Assembly (NCBI RefSeq): GCF_003334335.1
Contig: NZ_QOWQ01000004.1
Source of the DNA: Escherichia coli
Lineage (GTDB): Bacteria; Pseudomonadota; Gammaproteobacteria; Enterobacterales; Enterobacteriaceae
DNA: 64,000 nt
Reading direction: 5' to 3' (one strand)
The notes beneath the pieces are model-generated. The model was not told the DNA's origin. It ran no database searches and saw only the letters and a list, made by a program, of their open reading frames with translations. Position numbers and translations under genes: made by a program. Positions 3,404 through 63,986 of this stretch are shown here, one piece after another (the stretch's first letter is position 1; each line of letters starts with the position of its first letter).

Positions 3404-5938
3404 ATGGCCGGGAATGACCGCGAGCCAATTGGACGCAAAGGGAAACCGACGCGTCCGGTCAAACAAAAGGTAAGCCGTCGTCGTTACGAAGATGACGATG
3501 ATTACGACGATTATGATGACTATGAGGATGAAGAACCGATGCCGCGCAAAGGTAAGGGCAAAGGCAAAGGGCGTAAGCCTCGTGGCAAACGCGGCTGGCT
3601 ATGGCTACTGCTAAAACTGGCTATCGTTTTTGCCGTGCTGATCGCCATTTACGGCGTTTATCTCGATCAAAAAATTCGTAGCCGTATTGATGGCAAGGTC
3701 TGGCAACTGCCTGCGGCAGTTTATGGCCGAATGGTCAATCTTGAGCCAGACATGACCATCAGCAAGAACGAGATGGTGAAGCTGCTGGAGGCGACCCAGT
3801 ATCGTCAGGTGTCGAAAATGACCCGTCCTGGCGAATTTACCGTGCAGGCCAACAGCATTGAGATGATTCGCCGTCCGTTTGATTTCCCGGACAGTAAAGA
3901 AGGACAGGTGCGCGCGCGTCTGACCTTTGATGGCGATCATCTGGCGACGATCGTCAATATGGAGAACAACCGTCAGTTCGGTTTCTTCCGTCTTGATCCG
4001 CGTCTGATCACCATGATCTCTTCGCCAAACGGTGAGCAGCGTCTGTTTGTGCCGCGCAGTGGTTTCCCGGATTTGCTGGTGGATACTTTGCTGGCGACAG
4101 AAGACCGTCATTTTTACGAGCATGATGGAATCAGTCTCTACTCAATCGGACGTGCGGTGCTGGCAAACCTGACCGCCGGACGCACGGTACAGGGTGCGAG
4201 TACGCTGACGCAACAGCTGGTGAAAAACCTGTTCCTCTCCAGCGAGCGTTCTTACTGGCGTAAAGCGAACGAAGCTTACATGGCGCTGATCATGGACGCG
4301 CGTTACAGCAAAGACCGTATTCTTGAGCTGTATATGAACGAGGTGTATCTCGGTCAGAGCGGCGACAACGAAATCCGCGGCTTCCCGCTGGCAAGCTTGT
4401 ATTACTTTGGTCGCCCGGTAGAAGAGCTAAGCCTCGACCAGCAGGCGCTGTTAGTCGGTATGGTGAAAGGGGCGTCCATCTACAACCCGTGGCGTAACCC
4501 AAAACTGGCGCTGGAGCGACGTAATCTGGTGCTGCGTCTGCTGCAACAGCAACAGATTATTGATCAAGAACTCTATGACATGTTGAGTGCCCGTCCGCTG
4601 GGGGTTCAGCCGCGCGGTGGGGTGATCTCTCCTCAGCCAGCCTTTATGCAACTGGTGCGTCAGGAGCTGCAGGCAAAACTGGGCGATAAGGTAAAAGATC
4701 TCTCCGGCGTGAAGATCTTCACTACCTTTGACTCGGTGGCCCAGGACGCGGCAGAAAAAGCCGCCGTGGAAGGCATTCCGGCACTGAAGAAACAGCGTAA
4801 GTTGAGCGATCTTGAAACTGCGATTGTGGTCGTCGACCGCTTTAGTGGTGAAGTTCGTGCGATGGTCGGAGGTTCTGAGCCGCAGTTTGCGGGCTACAAC
4901 CGTGCGATGCAGGCGCGTCGTTCGATTGGTTCCCTTGCAAAACCAGCGACTTATCTGACGGCCTTAAGCCAGCCGAAAATCTATCGTCTGAATACGTGGA
5001 TTGCGGATGCGCCAATTGCGCTGCGTCAGCCGAATGGCCAGGTCTGGTCACCGCAGAATGATGACCGTCGTTATAGCGAAAGCGGCAGAGTGATGCTGGT
5101 GGATGCGTTGACCCGTTCGATGAACGTGCCGACGGTAAATCTGGGGATGGCGCTGGGGCTGCCTGCGGTTACGGAGACCTGGATTAAACTGGGCGTACCG
5201 AAAGATCAGTTGCATCCGGTTCCGGCAATGCTGCTGGGGGCGTTGAACTTAACGCCAATCGAAGTGGCGCAGGCATTCCAGACCATCGCCAGCGGTGGTA
5301 ACCGTGCACCGCTTTCTGCGCTGCGTTCGGTAATCGCGGAAGATGGCAAAGTGCTGTATCAGAGCTTCCCGCAGGCGGAACGCGCTGTTCCGGCGCAGGC
5401 GGCGTATCTGACACTATGGACCATGCAGCAGGTGGTACAACGCGGTACGGGTCGTCAGCTTGGGGCGAAATACCCGAACCTGCATCTGGCAGGGAAAACA
5501 GGGACTACCAACAATAACGTAGATACCTGGTTTGCGGGCATTGACGGCAGCACGGTGACCATCACCTGGGTCGGCCGTGATAACAACCAGCCGACCAAAC
5601 TGTATGGTGCCAGCGGGGCAATGTCGATTTATCAGCGTTATCTGGCTAACCAGACGCCAACGCCGCTGAATCTTGTTCCGCCAGAAGATATTGCAGATAT
5701 GGGCGTGGACTACGACGGCAACTTTGTTTGCAGCGGTGGCATGCGTATCTTGCCGGTCTGGACCAGCGATCCGCAATCGCTGTGCCAGCAGAGCGAGATG
5801 CAGCAGCAGCCGTCAGGCAATCCGTTTGATCAGTCTTCTCAGCCGCAGCAACAGCCGCAACAGCAACCTGCTCAGCAAGAGCAGAAAGACAGCGACGGTG
5901 TAGCCGGTTGGATCAAGGATATGTTTGGTAGTAATTAA
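3404..5938 (+). CDS. mrcB: Penicillin-binding protein 1B (bifunctional glycosyltransferase/transpeptidase)
   Basis: ORF 3389..5938; start at ATG 3404 ([14 protein letters not shown]...) gives 844 aa; acidic D/Y-rich N-terminus, TM helix, transpeptidase motifs, Q-rich C-terminus. Confidence 0.95.
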
Positions 5939-8451: not shown

Positions 8452-9249
8452 ATGCAGGAATACACGAATCATTCCGATACCACTTTTGCACTGCGTAATA
8501 TCTCCTTTCGTGTGCCCGGGCGCACGCTTTTGCATCCGCTGTCGTTAACCTTTCCTGCCGGGAAAGTGACCGGTCTGATTGGTCACAACGGTTCTGGTAA
8601 ATCCACTCTGCTCAAAATGCTTGGCCGTCATCAGCCGCCGTCGGAAGGGGAGATTCTTCTTGATGCCCAACCGCTGGAAAGCTGGAGCAGCAAAGCGTTT
8701 GCCCGCAAAGTGGCTTATTTGCTGCAGCAGCTTCCTCCGGCAGAAGGGATGACCGTGCGTGAACTGGTGGCGATTGGTCGTTACCCGTGGCATGGCGCGC
8801 TGGGGCGCTTTGGGGCGGCAGATCGCGAAAAAGTCGAGGAAGCTATCTCGCTGGTTGGCTTAAAACCGCTGGCGCATCGGCTGGTCGATAGTCTCTCTGG
8901 CGGCGAACGTCAGCGGGCGTGGATCGCCATGCTGGTGGCGCAGGATAGCCGTTGTCTGTTGCTCGACGAACCGACCTCGGCGCTGGATATCGCCCACCAG
9001 GTTGATGTGCTGTCGCTGGTGCACCGTTTAAGTCAGGAGCGTGGCCTGACGGTCATTGCCGTGTTGCACGATATCAATATGGCGGTACGCTACTGTGATT
9101 ATCTGGTCGCCCTGCGCGGCGGTGAAATGATTGCTCAGGGAACGCCTGCGGAAATTATGCGCGGCGAAACCCTCGAAATGATTTATGGCATCCCGATGGG
9201 TATTTTGCCGCATCCGGCGGGTGCTGCACCTGTGAGTTTTGTTTATTGA
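8452..9249 (+). CDS. fhuC: Ferric hydroxamate ABC transporter ATP-binding protein FhuC
   Basis: ORF 8410..9249 trimmed to ATG 8452 (MQEYTNHSDTTF...), 265 aa; Walker A GHNGSGKST, ABC signature LSGGERQR. Confidence 0.93.
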   Translation: MQEYTNHSDTTFALRNISFRVPGRTLLHPLSLTFPAGKVTGLIGHNGSGKSTLLKMLGRHQPPSEGEILLDAQPLESWSSKAFARKVAYLLQQLPPAEGMTVRELVAIGRYPWHGALGRFGAADREKVEEAISLVGLKPLAHRLVDSLSGGERQRAWIAMLVAQDSRCLLLDEPTSALDIAHQVDVLSLVHRLSQERGLTVIAVLHDINMAVRYCDYLVALRGGEMIAQGTPAEIMRGETLEMIYGIPMGILPHPAGAAPVSFVY

Positions 9250-10139
9250 TGAGCGGCTTACCTCTTATTTCGCGCCGTCGACTGTTAACGGCGATGGCGC
9301 TTTCTCCGTTGTTATGGCAGATGAATACCGCCCACGCGGCGGCTATTGATCCCAATCGTATTGTGGCGCTGGAGTGGTTGCCGGTGGAATTACTGCTGGC
9401 GCTCGGCATCGTGCCTTACGGCGTGGCGGATACCATCAACTATCGCCTGTGGGTCAGCGAACCACCATTGCCGGACTCAGTGATCGACGTCGGTTTGCGC
9501 ACAGAACCTAACCTTGAACTGCTGACCGAAATGAAACCATCGTTTATGGTCTGGTCGGCAGGATATGGCCCTTCACCAGAAATGCTGGCTCGTATTGCGC
9601 CGGGTCGCGGATTTAACTTCAGTGACGGCAAACAGCCGTTGGCGATGGCGCGTAAATCGCTGACGGAAATGGCAGATTTACTTAACCTGCAAAGCGCAGC
9701 GGAAACGCATTTAGCGCAATATGAAGACTTTATCCGCAGCATGAAACCCCGCTTTGTGAAGCGTGGTGCGCGTCCGTTATTGCTGACGACGCTTATCGAT
9801 CCGCGCCATATGCTGGTCTTCGGTCCAAACAGCTTGTTCCAGGAAATTCTTGATGAGTACGGCATCCCAAATGCCTGGCAAGGGGAAACCAACTTCTGGG
9901 GCAGTACCGCCGTCAGTATCGATCGTCTGGCGGCGTATAAAGACGTTGATGTGCTCTGTTTTGATCACGACAACAGCAAAGACATGGATGCGCTAATGGC
10001 AACGCCGCTGTGGCAGGCCATGCCGTTTGTCCGCGCCGGACGCTTTCAGCGCGTACCTGCAGTCTGGTTTTATGGTGCGACGCTCTCGGCAATGCACTTT
10101 GTGCGCGTTCTGGATAACGCCATCGGAGGTAAAGCGTGA
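9249..10139 (+). CDS. fhuD: Periplasmic ferric hydroxamate-binding protein FhuD
   Basis: ATG 9249 overlaps the fhuC stop (TGATG); 296 aa with RR-containing signal peptide. Confidence 0.93.
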   Translation: MSGLPLISRRRLLTAMALSPLLWQMNTAHAAAIDPNRIVALEWLPVELLLALGIVPYGVADTINYRLWVSEPPLPDSVIDVGLRTEPNLELLTEMKPSFMVWSAGYGPSPEMLARIAPGRGFNFSDGKQPLAMARKSLTEMADLLNLQSAAETHLAQYEDFIRSMKPRFVKRGARPLLLTTLIDPRHMLVFGPNSLFQEILDEYGIPNAWQGETNFWGSTAVSIDRLAAYKDVDVLCFDHDNSKDMDALMATPLWQAMPFVRAGRFQRVPAVWFYGATLSAMHFVRVLDNAIGGKA

Positions 10140-13762: not shown

Positions 13763-15202
<1,440 letters not shown>

Positions 15203-15283
15203 ACGAAATACCAGGGTATTAGATAATGGCGATTATTATTGGGTTAGAATTTGCCCAATTGCCGATGTCGTTTGGAGCAAAAT

Positions 15284-15628
15284 ATGAGTGATGACGTAGC
15301 ACTGCCGCTGGAGTTTACCGACGCAGCAGCCAACAAAGTTAAAAGCCTGATCGCTGACGAAGATAACCCGAATCTGAAATTACGCGTGTATATCACCGGT
15401 GGCGGTTGCAGCGGCTTCCAGTATGGTTTCACCTTTGATGATCAGGTGAACGAAGGCGATATGACCATCGAAAAACAGGGCGTTGGCCTGGTGGTTGATC
15501 CGATGAGCCTGCAATATCTGGTCGGCGGTTCCGTTGATTATACCGAAGGTCTGGAAGGTTCTCGTTTCATCGTGACCAACCCGAACGCGAAAAGCACCTG
15601 CGGTTGCGGTTCTTCCTTTAGTATCTAA
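15284..15628 (+). CDS. erpA: Iron-sulfur cluster insertion protein ErpA (A-type carrier)
   Basis: ORF 15251..15628 trimmed to ATG 15284 ([11 protein letters not shown]...), 114 aa; C-terminal CGCGSSF motif. Confidence 0.9.
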
Positions 15629-15638
15629 TCTGTTGTTC

Positions 15639-15665
15639 ATGTGCCGGATAAACTATCCGGCACAT
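15639..15665. terminator. Bidirectional stem-loop terminator between convergent erpA and yadS
   Basis: atgtgccggata-aac-tatccggcacat, a perfect 12-bp stem. Confidence 0.65.
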
Positions 15666-16335: not shown

Positions 16336-17136
16336 CTAATCTACCTGTGAAAGCGCATTACAGAGCTGTTGTGCAGCGAGGATAATACGTGGGCTTGCAC
16401 GTTCAAACCAGTCACTCGTGAGAGGAATAACGGGAATTTTGAGCTGTTCACCCCAGTATTGTTTGATTTTAGGAATTTGGTCCGGTCCGCCTGTAATGAC
16501 AATCGCCTGTGGCGAGCGTGCTAACACCTGTTCGCGGCTAACTTGCGGCCAGGGAACCCGGCTGTCTTTAAAGATGTTTTCTCCGCCACAAACTTCGAGT
16601 ACCTGGTTCTGAATCGACTCTTTTCCACTGGTAAATGGCGGATTAATGCCGAATTGCAGAAAAACACGTTTTTTAGGTTTATCAGCATATTGCGCTTTCA
16701 ATTGCGCGTACTGATCCAGCAGGGATTGCGCGGCTTGTTCGGCCTTGTCTGGTTGCGGACTCCAGGGGGCCAGTTGACGTAACGCATTGGCAATTTGTTC
16801 AATGCTTGTCGCATCGACCCACATCACTTTTATTCCCAGCGAAGCCAGCTGGTCAACCTGCCGCTCGGCATTACCTCCACGCCAGGCAATCACCAGATCG
16901 GGTTTCAGCGCGACAATGCGTTCCAGATTCATCCCCTGCCAGGTGGAAACCTGCTCAATCTTTTGCGCTTGTGGAGGATAGTCGGAATAGCTGCTGACCC
17001 CAACCGGCGTGATCCCGGCGGCAAAGGCAAGTTCAGTGTTGGCGGGAGAAAGCGTGATGACGCGCGGCGCGGCGTTGAGCCACAGTGGCGCAAGAAAAGA
17101 CAGGGCGACCAGCGCCCTGAACAGTGACTTAGCCAT
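16336..17136 (-). CDS. btuF: Periplasmic vitamin B12-binding protein BtuF
   Basis: ORF 16336..17163 trimmed to ATG 17136 ([14 protein letters not shown]...), 266 aa with signal peptide. Confidence 0.9.
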
Positions 17137-41230: not shown

Positions 41231-41233
41231 TAC

Positions 41234-42022
41234 GTGATTGATAAATCCGCCTTTGTGCATCCAACCGCCATTGTGGAAGAGGGCGCGTCAATTGGCGCGA
41301 ACGCACACATTGGTCCTTTTTGTATCGTTGGACCCCATGTCGAAATTGGTGAGGGTACCGTACTGAAATCTCACGTTGTCGTGAATGGTCATACTAAAAT
41401 TGGCCGCGATAATGAGATTTATCAGTTCGCCTCCATCGGCGAAGTTAACCAGGATCTGAAATATGCTGGCGAACCGACCCGTGTGGAAATCGGCGATCGT
41501 AACCGCATTCGCGAAAGCGTCACCATTCATCGTGGCACAGTCCAGGGCGGTGGATTGACGAAGGTGGGCAGCGACAACTTACTGATGATCAACGCGCACA
41601 TTGCGCACGATTGTACGGTAGGTAACCGCTGTATTCTCGCCAACAACGCAACGCTGGCGGGTCACGTATCGGTTGACGACTTCGCGATCATCGGCGGCAT
41701 GACCGCAGTCCATCAGTTCTGCATCATTGGTGCGCACGTGATGGTTGGCGGCTGCTCCGGTGTGGCGCAGGACGTCCCTCCTTATGTCATTGCGCAGGGT
41801 AACCACGCAACGCCGTTCGGTGTCAATATCGAAGGGCTGAAGCGCCGCGGATTCAGCCGTGAGGCGATTACCGCTATCCGCAATGCGTATAAGCTGATTT
41901 ATCGTAGCGGTAAAACGCTCGATGAAGTGAAACCGGAAATTGCTGAACTGGCGGAAACATATCCGGAAGTGAAAGCCTTTACCGATTTCTTTGCACGCTC
42001 AACGCGCGGTCTGATTCGTTAA
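41234..42022 (+). CDS. lpxA: UDP-N-acetylglucosamine O-acyltransferase
   Basis: 262-aa ORF with GTG start at 41234 and hexapeptide repeats. Confidence 0.95.
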
Positions 42023-43170
42023 TGACTGAACAGCGTCCATTAACGATTGCCCTGGTCGCCGGAGAAACCTCCGGCGATATCCTGGGGGCCGGTTTAATCC
42101 GCGCTCTGAAAGAACATGTGCCCAACGCCCGCTTTGTTGGTGTTGCCGGGCCACGAATGCAGGCTGAAGGCTGCGAAGCCTGGTACGAAATGGAAGAACT
42201 GGCGGTGATGGGCATTGTTGAAGTACTCGGTCGTCTGCGTCGCTTACTGCATATTCGTGCCGATCTGACAAAGCGTTTTGGCGAACTGAAGCCAGATGTT
42301 TTTGTTGGTATTGATGCGCCTGACTTCAATATTACTCTTGAAGGTAACCTCAAAAAGCAGGGTATCAAAACCATTCATTACGTCAGTCCGTCAGTCTGGG
42401 CGTGGCGACAGAAACGTGTTTTCAAAATAGGCAGAGCCACCGATCTGGTGCTCGCATTTCTGCCTTTCGAAAAAGCGTTTTATGACAAATACAACGTACC
42501 GTGCCGCTTTATCGGTCATACCATGGCTGATGCCATGCCATTAGATCCAGATAAAAATGCCGCCCGTGATGTGCTGGGGATCCCTCACGATGCCCACTGC
42601 CTGGCGTTGCTACCGGGGAGCCGTGGTGCAGAAGTTGAAATGCTTAGTGCCGATTTCCTGAAAACGGCCCAGCTTTTGCGCCAGACATATCCGGATCTCG
42701 AAATCGTGGTGCCACTGGTGAATGCCAAACGCCGCGAGCAGTTTGAACGCATCAAAGCTGAAGTCGCGCCAGACCTTTCAGTTCATTTGCTGGATGGGAT
42801 GGGCCGTGAGGCGATGGTCGCCAGCGATGCGGCGCTACTGGCGTCGGGTACGGCAGCCCTGGAGTGTATGCTGGCGAAATGCCCGATGGTGGTGGGATAT
42901 CGCATGAAGCCTTTTACCTTCTGGTTGGCGAAGCGGCTGGTGAAAACTGATTATGTCTCGCTGCCAAATCTGCTGGCGGGCAGAGAGTTAGTCAAAGAAT
43001 TATTGCAGGAAGAGTGTGAGCCGCAAAAACTGGCTGCGGCGCTGTTACCGCTGTTGGCGAACGGGAAAACCAGCCACGCGATGCACGATACCTTCCGTGA
43101 ACTGCATCAGCAGATCCGCTGCAATGCCGATGAGCAGGCGGCACAAGCCGTTCTGGAGTTAGCACAATGA
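42022..43170 (+). CDS. lpxB: Lipid-A-disaccharide synthase
   Basis: 382-aa ORF; ATG overlaps the lpxA stop by 1 nt. Confidence 0.95.
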
Positions 43171-47282: not shown

Positions 47283-47294
47283 TACAGGAATACT

Positions 47295-52351: not shown

Positions 52352-52606
52352 TCAGGATTCGCTTACCACCACCGTACCGATTTCCGGGTGGCTAAAGCTG
52401 GTAATTTTATCCAGACGCAGCTCGCGGGTTTCGCCAGCGGCCTCGACGACCAGGTACTCCACATTTTTGCGGGAGACTAAATCACTGGCTTTTGCCTGCA
52501 ATTTTTCGCCATCTTTCAGCTCAAGTGTCAGCATTAAATGATGCTGGCAGGCGAGCTCAAGATTATCGTAATCATCACAATTGATTGGTTGATACGTATC
52601 ATTCAT
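52352..52606 (-). CDS. rof: Rho-binding antiterminator Rof
   Basis: ORF 52352..52612; start set at the second ATG ([21 protein letters not shown]...) for 84 aa; the upstream ATG at 52612 is an alternative. Confidence 0.85.
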
Positions 52607-52799
52607 TGACATAATCGCTCACCAGTAAGTTTGCCGCAGCGTATGCTGCTTTTTCCCTGACAGCCTCAGAAAGGGCGTCGTCGGCAGCCATTTCATTCAG
52701 CACTTTCAAAACGCAGCCCAGCGCGTCCGGAACGTATCCTAAGTCTCCGCTGGCGATTTCCGCGTACCGCTTGCGTATTAACTCACAATATTTTTCCAC
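52599..52799 (-). CDS. yaeP: UPF0253 small protein YaeP (function unknown)
   Basis: ORF 52599..52817 trimmed to GTG 52799 ([18 protein letters not shown]...), 66 aa; its stop overlaps the rof start. Confidence 0.8.
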
Positions 52800-52964: not shown

Positions 52965-53510
52965 ATGGCGCTTAAAGCGACAATTTATAAAGCGACGGTT
53001 AATGTGGCCGATCTCGACCGCAACCAGTTTCTCGATGCCTCTCTGACGCTGGCGCGCCATCCTTCAGAAACCCAGGAGCGTATGATGCTGCGCTTGCTGG
53101 CGTGGCTGAAATATGCTGATGAACGTCTGCAATTTACCCGTGGTTTGTGTGCCGATGATGAGCCGGAAGCGTGGCTGCGTAACGATCACCTGGGCATTGA
53201 TTTGTGGATTGAGCTGGGGCTGCCGGATGAGCGGCGGATTAAGAAAGCCTGCACCCAGGCCGCAGAAGTGGCGCTGTTTACCTATAATAGTCGGGCGGCG
53301 CAAATCTGGTGGCAGCAAAATCAGAGCAAATGTGTGCAGTTTGCCAATCTTTCCGTCTGGTATCTGGACGATGAACAACTGGCGAAAGTAAGCGCCTTTG
53401 CCGATCGTACCATGACGCTGCAGGCAACGATTCAGGATGGCGTGATCTGGTTATCGGATGATAAGAATAATCTGGAAGTGAACTTAACCGCCTGGCAACA
53501 ACCTTCATGA
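52965..53510 (+). CDS. yaeQ: YaeQ-family protein (function unknown)
   Basis: 181-aa [24 protein letters not shown]... Confidence 0.88.
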
Positions 53511-57560: not shown

Positions 57561-58268
57561 TTAACGCGGTTCCAGCGCAAAGACTTCAAAACCTGCGTCG
57601 GTGACGCGCCAGCGAACGTTAAAATCATGTAGCCAGACGGCATAGGTTTTGCCCGTTTCCTCACCTTTACGATAGGCCGGGCGCGGGTCCTGCGCCAGTA
57701 CTTCGCGGATAAACAGCGTTAACTGCGGATAACGCTTCTCCAGCGTCAAAAGCTGCTTTTCGACCTCTGCGGTAAAACTCACCGCCATCTCTGCAGCTGG
57801 CGCACTTTGCGCATAGCTGGCACTGGCATCGGGAAGCGATTCGGCAAAGGGGAGATACGGTTTGATATCCACTACCGGCGTACCATCGACCAGATCCAGA
57901 CTGCCGAGCTTCAGAATCACGCTGTCTTTATGGCAAACAACCTCTTTCAGCTCTACCAGCGACATGCCAATTGGGTTAGGGCGGAAAGTAGAGCGTGTTG
58001 CGAAAACCCCCATTCTGGCGTTACCGCCGAGGCGCGGTGGACGCACAGTCGGACGCCAGCCGCCTTCCATCGTTTGATGAAAGACGAAAAGGATCCATAA
58101 ATGGCTGAACGCTTCCAGGCCGCGAACGGCGTCGGCCTGGTTGTAGGGAGCAATGAGATGCAGTTCGCCGTTGGCGCTTTTTACCAGACCTGGCTGGCGC
58201 GGAACGGCGAACTTTTCTTTATAGGGCGAGCGAATAACGCCTATTTGCTCGAACTGGAAACTGCTCAT
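57561..58268 (-). CDS. tsaA: tRNA (adenine37-N6)-methyltransferase TsaA (YaeB)
   Basis: 235-aa ORF MSSFQFEQIGVIRSPYKEKFAVPRQPG... Confidence 0.9.
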   Translation of the reverse strand: MSSFQFEQIGVIRSPYKEKFAVPRQPGLVKSANGELHLIAPYNQADAVRGLEAFSHLWILFVFHQTMEGGWRPTVRPPRLGGNARMGVFATRSTFRPNPIGMSLVELKEVVCHKDSVILKLGSLDLVDGTPVVDIKPYLPFAESLPDASASYAQSAPAAEMAVSFTAEVEKQLLTLEKRYPQLTLFIREVLAQDPRPAYRKGEETGKTYAVWLHDFNVRWRVTDAGFEVFALEPR

Positions 58269-58719: not shown

Positions 58720-58749
58720 TAAAAATGACAAGACGGGCAAGCGCCCGTC
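58720..58749 (-). terminator. Rho-independent terminator of the metNIQ operon
   Basis: Stem gacgggc/gcccgtc; on the minus strand it is followed by ttgtcattttta. Confidence 0.6.
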
Positions 58750-58786
58750 CTGAATGATATTACAAATTGTGGAAACAGCCTAAAAA

Positions 58787-59641: not shown

Positions 59642-60295
59642 TTACTTGCGAGTGACAGCCCGGACGATGCGGTCGCCTGCGAACTGAATTAAATAAACCA
59701 GAATGACCAGCAATACCAGTACCGTATTCATCACCGTCGCGTTATAGCCGATGTAGCCATACTGATAGCCAATCTGACCTAAACCACCGGCACCGACTGC
59801 ACCACCCATCGCGGAATAACCGACCAGGGTAATCAGGGTGATAGTTGCCGCATTCACCAGACCCGGCAGCGCTTCCGGTAACAGCACCTTACGGACGATC
59901 TGCATCGGCGTGGCACCCATTGCGCGGGAAGCTTCAATTAACCCGGTTGGGATCTCCAGCAGAGCGTTCTCGACCATACGGGCAATAAACGGTGCTGCAC
60001 CAACGGTTAACGGAACAATCGCTGCCTGCAAACCAATCGATGTACCGACAATAACGCGGGTAAACGGAATCATCCATACAAGCAAGATAATGAACGGGAT
60101 GGAACGGAAAATGTTCACAATCGCAGAAACGGTACGATACAGCTTCGCGTTAGCAATAATTTGCCCCGGACGCGTGACATAAAGCAGAACGCCAACCGGC
60201 AGACCAATCACAAAGCCAAAAAAACCGGATACGAAGGTCATTGCCAGCGTTTCCCATACGCCACGAACCAGCAGCCACATCATCGGCTCAGACAT
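59642..60295 (-). CDS. metI: D-methionine ABC transporter permease MetI
   Basis: 217-aa hydrophobic ORF. Confidence 0.94.

Positions 60296-62444: not shown

Positions 62445-63986
<1,542 letters not shown>

Follow-up and report, generated by a model that had tools for sequence, protein, structure and literature searches.

Short overlaps between one gene's stop codon and the next gene's start codon have been textbook features of operons since the 1980s. At the classical coupled operon junctions, trpE–trpD, trpB–trpA (TGATG) and rplK–rplA, translation of the downstream gene depends on translation of the upstream gene. These junctions serve subunit balance in complexes; in the trp pairs both genes code for subunits of a single enzyme, which are made at about 1:1. 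A second group of E. coli pairs, hyfH–hyfI, astD–astB, ydbH–ynbE and menD–menH, which are co-directional and share a 4-nt ATGA overlap, has been described as coupled by termination-reinitiation (TeRe) (Huber et al. 2019, 2023). When native E. coli pairs with a spacing of −4 were placed in reporter tests, four of five were strictly coupled and the fifth, bioBF, initiated de novo. Coupling drops steeply with distance (Huber et al. 2023). Ribosome profiling under RRF depletion (Saito et al. 2020, as cited by Huber et al. 2023) is reported to have led its authors to favour de novo initiation at overlaps. Across all bacteria and archaea three spacings are enriched, −4 and then −1 and −8 (Brown and Wade 2025), and the ranking is the same in E. 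coli (Huber et al. 2023).

Here we analyzed a 64,000-nt stretch of an E. coli chromosome (hereafter, the window) that carries ten such overlaps, in operons including those named fhuACDB and yaeP-rof in the literature. The overlaps are already known from a genome-wide catalogue published in 2023 and from locus-specific papers. In the supplement to Huber 2023, the list of gene pairs gives mtn→btuF, yadW→erpA and yaeP→rof at −8 and lpxB→rnhB, yaeQ→arfB and rcsF→trmO at −4, and annotates complex formation for each of these six pairs. Said et al. 2024 reported that arfB and rof are SD-less and overlap their upstream genes by 4 and 8 nt, the yaeP/rof overlap was mentioned in a 2022 mBio study (PMC9765468), and overlapping nucleotides in the fhuCDB operon were mentioned in the FhuCDB cryo-EM paper (Hu 2021). 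The genes and overlaps in these four sources are the same as those in the window, and the observation is identical. Searching the literature for rcsF in combination with yaeB returned nothing, and none of the window gene names occurred in the supplements of the SMRT-Cappable-seq paper, which thus provided no full-length operon evidence. What is added here is only the cross-genus junction statistics for mtn–btuF and rcsF–trmO and the link to a mapped RNA 3′ end.

Overlapping junctions in the window

The window is colinear with positions 161327–225326 of K-12 MG1655 (NC_000913.3), from which 32 substitutions and no indels set it apart, and a window coordinate equals the MG1655 record coordinate minus 161326. 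None of the 32 substitutions falls at a gene junction and the annotated CDS are all intact. Because the window is colinear with MG1655, free of indels and intact in its CDS, the RefSeq annotation could be transferred base for base. A 4-kb probe taken from the window was matched in 5,425 of 5,426 complete E. coli genomes.

We surveyed every adjacent pair among the 56 annotated protein genes of the window, 45 of which are same-strand pairs. Overlaps were present in 10 of the 45 and measured 1, 4 or 8 nt only, with the −8 spacing accounting for four pairs (Table 1). A sequence-only reading of this DNA had named nine of the ten, and all nine were verified at annotated stops and starts with exactly the geometry claimed; the 8-nt yadW→erpA overlap was absent from its list. 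The span to which that reading assigned the whole set, 9246–10139, is the fhuD ORF alone, counted from the in-frame TTG, and the pairs that it wrote as btuF/mtn and rof/yaeP were reversed, the upstream genes being mtn and yaeP. It had also called the overlaps pervasive, which overstates their frequency. Counting all spacings from −8 to +6 nt, 12 of the 45 same-strand pairs (27%) qualified, as against 707 of 2,987 unidirectional pairs (24%) genome-wide (Huber et al. 2023; binomial p = 0.60), so that the overlap frequency of the window is not unusual. Four further pairs were spaced by +9 to +12 nt, which fits the E. coli-specific peak at +10 (7%; Huber et al. 2023). The enrichment of the −4, −1 and −8 spacings is real and non-random, but it is a genome-wide, pan-prokaryotic norm and no specific feature of the window. 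All ten are ordinary junctions within operons of the E. coli chromosome.

Table 1. Junctions and associated features, in window coordinates.
Feature	Position	Strand	Description
fhuC stop / fhuD start	9247..9251	+	TGATG, 1-nt overlap; fhuD without SD
fhuD CDS	9249..10139	+	annotated ATG at 9249; in-frame TTG 3 nt upstream at 9246
fhuD stop / fhuB start	10136..10139	+	GTGA, 4-nt overlap; strong SD (GGAGG) within fhuD
yadW (21-aa small ORF) stop / erpA start	15284..15291	+	ATGagTGA, 8-nt overlap
GC-rich hairpin and U-rich tail	17091..17119	-	10 nt after mtn stop, btuF codons 6-15 (terminator scan)
mtn stop / btuF start	17129..17136	-	ATGgcTAA, 8-nt overlap; mtn upstream; btuF without SD
lpxA stop / lpxB start	42020..42024	+	TAATG, 1-nt overlap; lpxB without SD
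lpxB stop / rnhB start	43167..43170	+	ATGA, 4-nt overlap; weak SD (GGAG)
yaeP stop / rof start	52599..52606	-	ATGaaTGA, 8-nt overlap; yaeP upstream; rof without SD
yaeQ stop / arfB start	53507..53510	+	ATGA, 4-nt overlap; arfB without SD
rcsF stop / trmO (= tsaA, yaeB) start	58265..58268	-	ATGA, 4-nt overlap; trmO without SD
metN stop / metI start	60288..60295	-	ATGtcTGA, 8-nt overlap; SD (GAGG) within metN

Start-site properties and synthesis output

All ten pairs lie within the range of spacings given in the literature as competent for coupling (−8 to about +6 nt), at −1, −4 or −8. We calculated SD strength as the duplex energy with the anti-SD for all 56 window genes. At the overlaps, six of the ten starts (btuF, rof, lpxB, fhuD, trmO and arfB) had an energy of −2.8 kcal/mol or weaker, versus 7 of the 46 other genes (Fisher p = 0.0066), indicating that these six are poorly equipped for independent initiation. 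The other four bear an SD that lies within the upstream gene (fhuB, −10.8; metI, −7.1; rnhB, −5.9; erpA, −5.6 kcal/mol) and, having an SD of their own, could also initiate independently. As a group, the overlapped starts have initiation regions that are predicted to be closed: the predicted energy for opening positions −18 to +12 averaged 7.8 kcal/mol, compared with 5.3 kcal/mol at the other starts (Mann-Whitney p = 4e-4), and did not differ from that of random coding-interior sites (9.0; p = 0.25). Since their opening energy is about that of the coding interior, the overlapped starts are without the "open" signature of independently initiated genes. These closed initiation regions may be a simple effect of the GC content of coding sequence. 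In a promoter consensus scan, neither mtn nor rcsF had a sigma-70-like site on its coding strand, which counts as weak negative evidence, since such scans do not establish function.

Synthesis rates were taken from the ribosome profiling of Li 2014 as given in Dataset EV6 of Mori 2021, each value being divided by the molecular mass. The available part of this dataset covers five of the ten overlaps in one growth condition, with rnhB, rcsF, trmO, rof, yaeP and yaeQ lying outside it. Within it, the values were 54, 27 and 11 for FhuC, FhuD and FhuB, 754 and 126 for LpxA and LpxB, 754 and 340 for MetN and MetI, and 1802 and 38 for Mtn and BtuF (mtn:btuF, 47:1). The corresponding downstream/upstream ratios are 0.50 for fhuC/fhuD, 0.41 for fhuD/fhuB, 0.17 for lpxA/lpxB, 0.45 for metN/metI and 0.021 for mtn/btuF, so that the downstream product exceeded the upstream one at none of the five overlaps with data. 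In the same dataset, SD-equipped neighbours that do not overlap showed a rise (lpxD→fabZ, 3.2; metI→metQ, 31; dnaE→accA, 23). Low downstream/upstream ratios can also stem from effects at the mRNA level, for example from the RNA 3′ end inside btuF.

A hairpin and an RNA 3′ end at the mtn→btuF junction

The overlap leaves no intergenic space between mtn and btuF, and yet Term-seq in two growth conditions mapped RNA 3′ ends at MG1655 positions 178423 and 178421 (window 17097 and 17095), which were classed as primary for mtn and internal to btuF, 39 nt into the gene (Adams et al. 2021). The terminator scan placed a GC-rich hairpin at this position (Table 1). Its stem-loop, at 17119–17101, reads CAGGGCG-CTGGT-CGCCCTG, with a 7-bp stem that includes six GC pairs, and is followed by the tail TCTTTTCTTG. 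The mapped ends lie 4–6 nt past the stem, and a GC-rich stem-loop, a U-tract and a 3′ end are thus found together. The same site has a Rho score of 1.37 and is not a Rho termination region, and its intrinsic-terminator score of 2.32 is below the authors' threshold of 3.0 (Adams et al. 2021). RNA coverage in the 800 nt downstream of the site was 75, versus 106 in the 800 nt upstream (a ratio of 0.71). The hairpin therefore neither reaches the terminator-score threshold nor coincides with a substantial drop in RNA, and it can at most be called a weak terminator or a processing-protected end.

In most of the 59 related mtn–btuF loci described below, a GC-rich hairpin is again present at this position, often with an altered sequence and in a shifted register, and Providencia carries a canonical terminator there. 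RNAalifold detected no consensus structure in 53 mtn–btuF junctions. When the E. coli register was held fixed, only one compensatory pair was present, and the covariation score was reached in 48 of 500 shuffles. In view of these results, we do not claim covariation for the hairpin. Exceptional stability was considered as well and was rejected, the median rank of the hairpin being 0.13 among windows of the same genes.

The presence of a terminator-like hairpin with a U-rich tail, the two Term-seq ends at a site not classed as a Rho region, the recurrence of the hairpin in most Enterobacteriaceae with a canonical terminator in Providencia, and the 47:1 synthesis ratio in the available data could all be read to mean that the output of btuF is determined chiefly at the RNA level, the hairpin ending or trimming most mtn transcripts and the codon overlap being incidental. 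We consider this doubtful. RNA coverage falls by far less than the 47-fold drop in synthesis, the terminator score of about 2.3 is below 3.0, neither RNAalifold nor the fixed-register count lends covariation support, and the stability of the hairpin is unexceptional. Because an RNA ratio of about 0.7 is far too small to account for it, most of the 47-fold drop from mtn to btuF must be translational. A drop that is mostly translational fits inefficient, SD-less reinitiation at −8 for btuF.

Conservation of mtn→btuF and rcsF→trmO

We scanned species-representative genomes for Mtn and collected 60 Enterobacterales and 20 Bacillales loci. btuF lay directly downstream of mtn at 59 of the 60 Enterobacterales loci and at none of the 20 Bacillales loci. 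The spacing was −8 at 48 Enterobacterales loci (33 with GTG and 15 with ATG) and −11 at three; elsewhere, Yersinia had about −1/+2, Serratia +1, one MAG +6 and Providencia +72, and in Thorsellia the spacing was loose. At the 48 loci with a spacing of −8, the T of the btuF RTG, which is the third base of the penultimate Mtn codon, was invariant (48/48), while the residue encoded by that codon was R, H or N and comparable third positions varied freely. Since the T is invariant although the Mtn residue varies, the overlapped btuF start is under selection.

RcsF relatives among the matches listed by a homologue search were at least 82% identical, and divergent rcsF loci were obtained from a search of representatives, which yielded Pectobacterium, the Sodalis/Acerihabitans group, Erwiniaceae, Xenorhabdus and two metagenomic contigs. 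In all six divergent loci sampled (RcsF identity, 57–36%), rcsF was followed by the TrmO gene, with spacings of −4, −4, 0, +33, −1 and −1, and the pair sat in a conserved metNIQ-rcsF-trmO-proS block. The −8 overlap of metN→metI was kept in all four of the divergent loci that covered metN–metI. The mtn→btuF and rcsF→trmO adjacencies are thus old, tight and conserved across Enterobacterales, while the exact overlap drifts. That both are old and tight and yet drift in their overlap speaks for selection on proximity and not on a particular motif.

The drift of both spacings by lineage, from −8 through −11, −1/+2, +1 and +6 to +72 for mtn→btuF and among −4, 0, −1 and +33 for rcsF→trmO, is what would be expected if the overlaps were neutral products of genome compaction and of easy start or stop drift to NTGA or TRATG, with the downstream genes translated mainly by de novo 30S binding and the overlap having no effect on regulation. 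The uncoupled bioBF pair and the SDs of four of the ten downstream genes are also in keeping with such a neutral origin. It is nevertheless unlikely, considering that six of the ten starts are SD-less and as closed as the coding interior, which is unfavourable for de novo initiation, that a spacing of +6 or less has been kept at about 55 of 59 mtn–btuF loci and at five of six rcsF–trmO loci, and that downstream output never exceeds upstream output at the five pairs covered by the available synthesis data. It is highly improbable that some overlaps are annotation artefacts with the true starts further down- or upstream. In favour of artefacts, fhuD has TTG 9246 besides ATG 9249, in-frame ATGs occur in rof at 52612 and 52606, TTG 17163 opens the longest ORF of btuF, and only about 13 of the 56 related genomes retain a full-length 21-aa yadW ORF. 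Against them, in eight of the ten pairs no start codon of the ORF precedes the annotated one, the alternative starts of fhuD, rof and btuF would leave an overlap with the gene upstream, the btuF RTG at −8 has an invariant T (48/48) next to variable third positions, and TrmO N-termini align from residue 1 at loci whose RcsF shares only 36–57% identity with that of E. coli.

Discussion

Termination-reinitiation coupling is, in our judgment, the probable and best account of the ten junctions, and the dependence of each downstream gene on its upstream neighbour is what we infer from SD strength, predicted accessibility and synthesis output taken together. Combined with the literature, these data agree with termination-reinitiation, with unfolding driven by ribosomes, or with both, the upstream gene acting as a ceiling. 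With the downstream start codon overlapping the last 1, 4 or 8 nt of the upstream gene, a share of the ribosomes that finish at the upstream stop would stay on the mRNA and begin again at the neighbouring start, and the passage of ribosomes may in addition open local structure by which the start is otherwise masked. By either route, downstream translation would depend on upstream translation and be capped by it. The dependence would be strongest for the SD-less starts of fhuD, lpxB, btuF, rof, arfB and trmO, and weaker for fhuB, metI, rnhB and erpA, whose SDs lie in the upstream gene. Coupling of this kind need not give equal output, and the ratios range from about 0.5, as for the Fhu and Met transporter subunits, down to 0.02 for mtn→btuF, where some transcripts may also be lost through the RNA 3′ end associated with the hairpin just beyond the junction. 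The sequence-only reading had taken the overlaps to indicate translational coupling. That proposal is reasonable and plausible for the window pairs, given the SD-less, closed starts and a downstream output that is never above the upstream one; the four SD-equipped downstream genes count against it.

The 1-nt TGATG and TAATG junctions of fhuC/fhuD and lpxA/lpxB resemble the classical trp junctions. The trp pairs, however, are made at about 1:1, whereas lpxA:lpxB is about 6:1 and mtn:btuF about 47:1. Given these two ratios, the junctions of the window would mostly set a ceiling and not equal output. The TeRe pairs of Huber et al. 2019 and 2023 are similar to the window pairs in that the upstream gene contains the start region and the role of the SD varies, and they are likewise mixed in function, hyfHI encoding complex partners and menDH not. 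They differ in spacing, all being at −4 whereas window pairs are also found at −1 and −8, and in the type of evidence: they were assayed by reporters with premature stops and with measured mRNA, whereas dependence at the window pairs is deduced from the properties described above.

The sequence-only reading had considered it notable that rcsF/tsaA and btuF/mtn couple functionally unrelated genes, a view that the evidence does not support. For the latter pair, B12 is the cofactor of MetH, and Mtn recycles SAH and MTA. Both mtn and btuF feed the methionine/SAM cycle and are not obviously unrelated; by comparative genomics, mtn, btuB and btuFCD are predicted to belong to MetJ (methionine) regulons in gamma-proteobacteria. 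Nor are non-partners exceptional at this distance. Three of the ten window pairs encode complex partners (fhuC/fhuD, fhuD/fhuB and metN/metI). MetN and MetI belong to the same complex. FhuC, FhuD and FhuB are seen in one complex in the FhuCDB structure (Hu 2021). This proportion matches that of E. coli pairs at −8 to +10 nt, of which 30.4% are complex partners and 69.6% are not (Huber et al. 2023). The same catalogue marks mtn/btuF, lpxB/rnhB, yaeP/rof, rcsF/trmO and yadW/erpA as "not" complex partners and enters the status of yaeQ/arfB as undetermined; in its available portion, the adjacent metI/metQ pair bears the mark "CMPLX yes". The widest documented conservation is that of lpxB/rnhB, a pair not flagged in the sequence-only reading, which is a COG pair (LpxB@RnhB) syntenic across 317 species, its median spacing being −4 (Huber 2023).

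The position of the hairpin, within the first 13 codons of btuF, raises the speculative and rather unlikely idea that mtn→btuF is a translation-sensitive attenuator, in which the 3′ end would form unless a ribosome at the mtn stop, or one re-initiating on btuF, covered the 5′ arm of the hairpin. If so, btuF-yadS transcription and periplasmic B12 capture would be tied to ribosome traffic on mtn, a gene of the SAM cycle, and the recurrence of the hairpin in Enterobacteriaceae and the full terminator of Providencia would reflect selection.

As a discovery the overlaps matter little; their practical value lies in caution for annotation and engineering. A deletion or insertion that takes out the last codons of fhuC, fhuD, lpxA, lpxB or yaeQ, or of yaeP, rcsF, mtn or metN, also damages the downstream start and probably its translation. 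Neither does an overlap predict equal expression, the downstream/upstream ratios in the window running from 0.5 to 0.02.

Reading frames overlapping annotated starts

The window contains yadW, a 21-aa ORF whose end overlaps erpA (see the table). Codons 2–3 of erpA (AGT GAT) dictate the yadW stop codon, which was found in 54 of the 56 related genomes (loci L003–L062). The complete reading frame (M..IGL.F......GAKNE) was kept in only about 13 of these 56, which makes it doubtful that yadW is a conserved coding uORF.

Two genes have alternative in-frame starts. For fhuD, two candidates lie within TTGATG (9246–9251), each giving a different type of overlap. In rof (52599–52612, minus strand), an in-frame ATG at 52612 lies upstream of the annotated ATG start at 52606; initiation there would extend the overlap with yaeP from 8 to 14 nt.

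Hairpins at gene junctions

A hairpin followed by a U-rich tail (17091–17119, minus strand) begins 10 nt after the mtn stop codon and is contained within btuF codons 6–15. A similar hairpin was present at the mtn–btuF junction in most Enterobacteriaceae, but covariation was not demonstrated for the hairpin of these loci. In Providencia vermicola (locus L058, about 4694–4765), a canonical intrinsic terminator, AAAAAAGCATAAATGC...GCATTTATGCTTTTTT, comes after mtn, and 72 nt separate mtn from the start of btuF; in Enterobacteriaceae, by contrast, the two genes overlap by 8 nt. Elsewhere in the window lie two strong terminator-like hairpins; for the region of the one between erpA and yadS, the Term-seq list of Adams et al. 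(2021) includes an RNA 3′ end.

Coordinates of closely spaced pairs, alternative starts and hairpins in the window
Feature	Position	Spacing or overlap	Remarks
skp→lpxD	39642–39647	+3 nt	
fabZ→lpxA	41231–41236	+3 nt	
yadX→clcA	13770–13780	+11/+12 nt class	
ispU→cdsA	34339–34350	+11/+12 nt class	
cdsA→rseP	35209–35219	+11/+12 nt class	
dnaE→accA	47283–47294	+11/+12 nt class	
fhuD candidate start TTG	9246	−4 type	TTGA
fhuD annotated start ATG	9249	−1 type	TGATG
yadW/erpA	15226–15291	8-nt overlap	21-aa ORF
Terminator-like hairpin	58729–58752		Minus strand; 3′ of metQ, between metNIQ and rcsF–trmO
Terminator-like hairpin	15639–15665		Between convergent erpA and yadS

Sequence variation and gene spacing

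Relative to MG1655, the window carries 32 differences, 10 of them clustered within 37 nt (63446–63482) of the 16S rRNA gene rrsH. Among the best matches to the probed 4-kb segment of the window, no identical genome was found. Two tandem rcsF paralogues precede trmO on each of two metagenomic Enterobacterales contigs (L084, 228–1243; L086, 249–1261), one of which belongs to an Erwiniaceae RcsF cluster.

Among the non-overlapping pairs in the window, two are spaced at +3 nt and four at +11/+12 nt. A spacing peak specific to E. coli has been described at +10 nt (Huber 2023), and the four +11/+12 nt pairs fit this peak.
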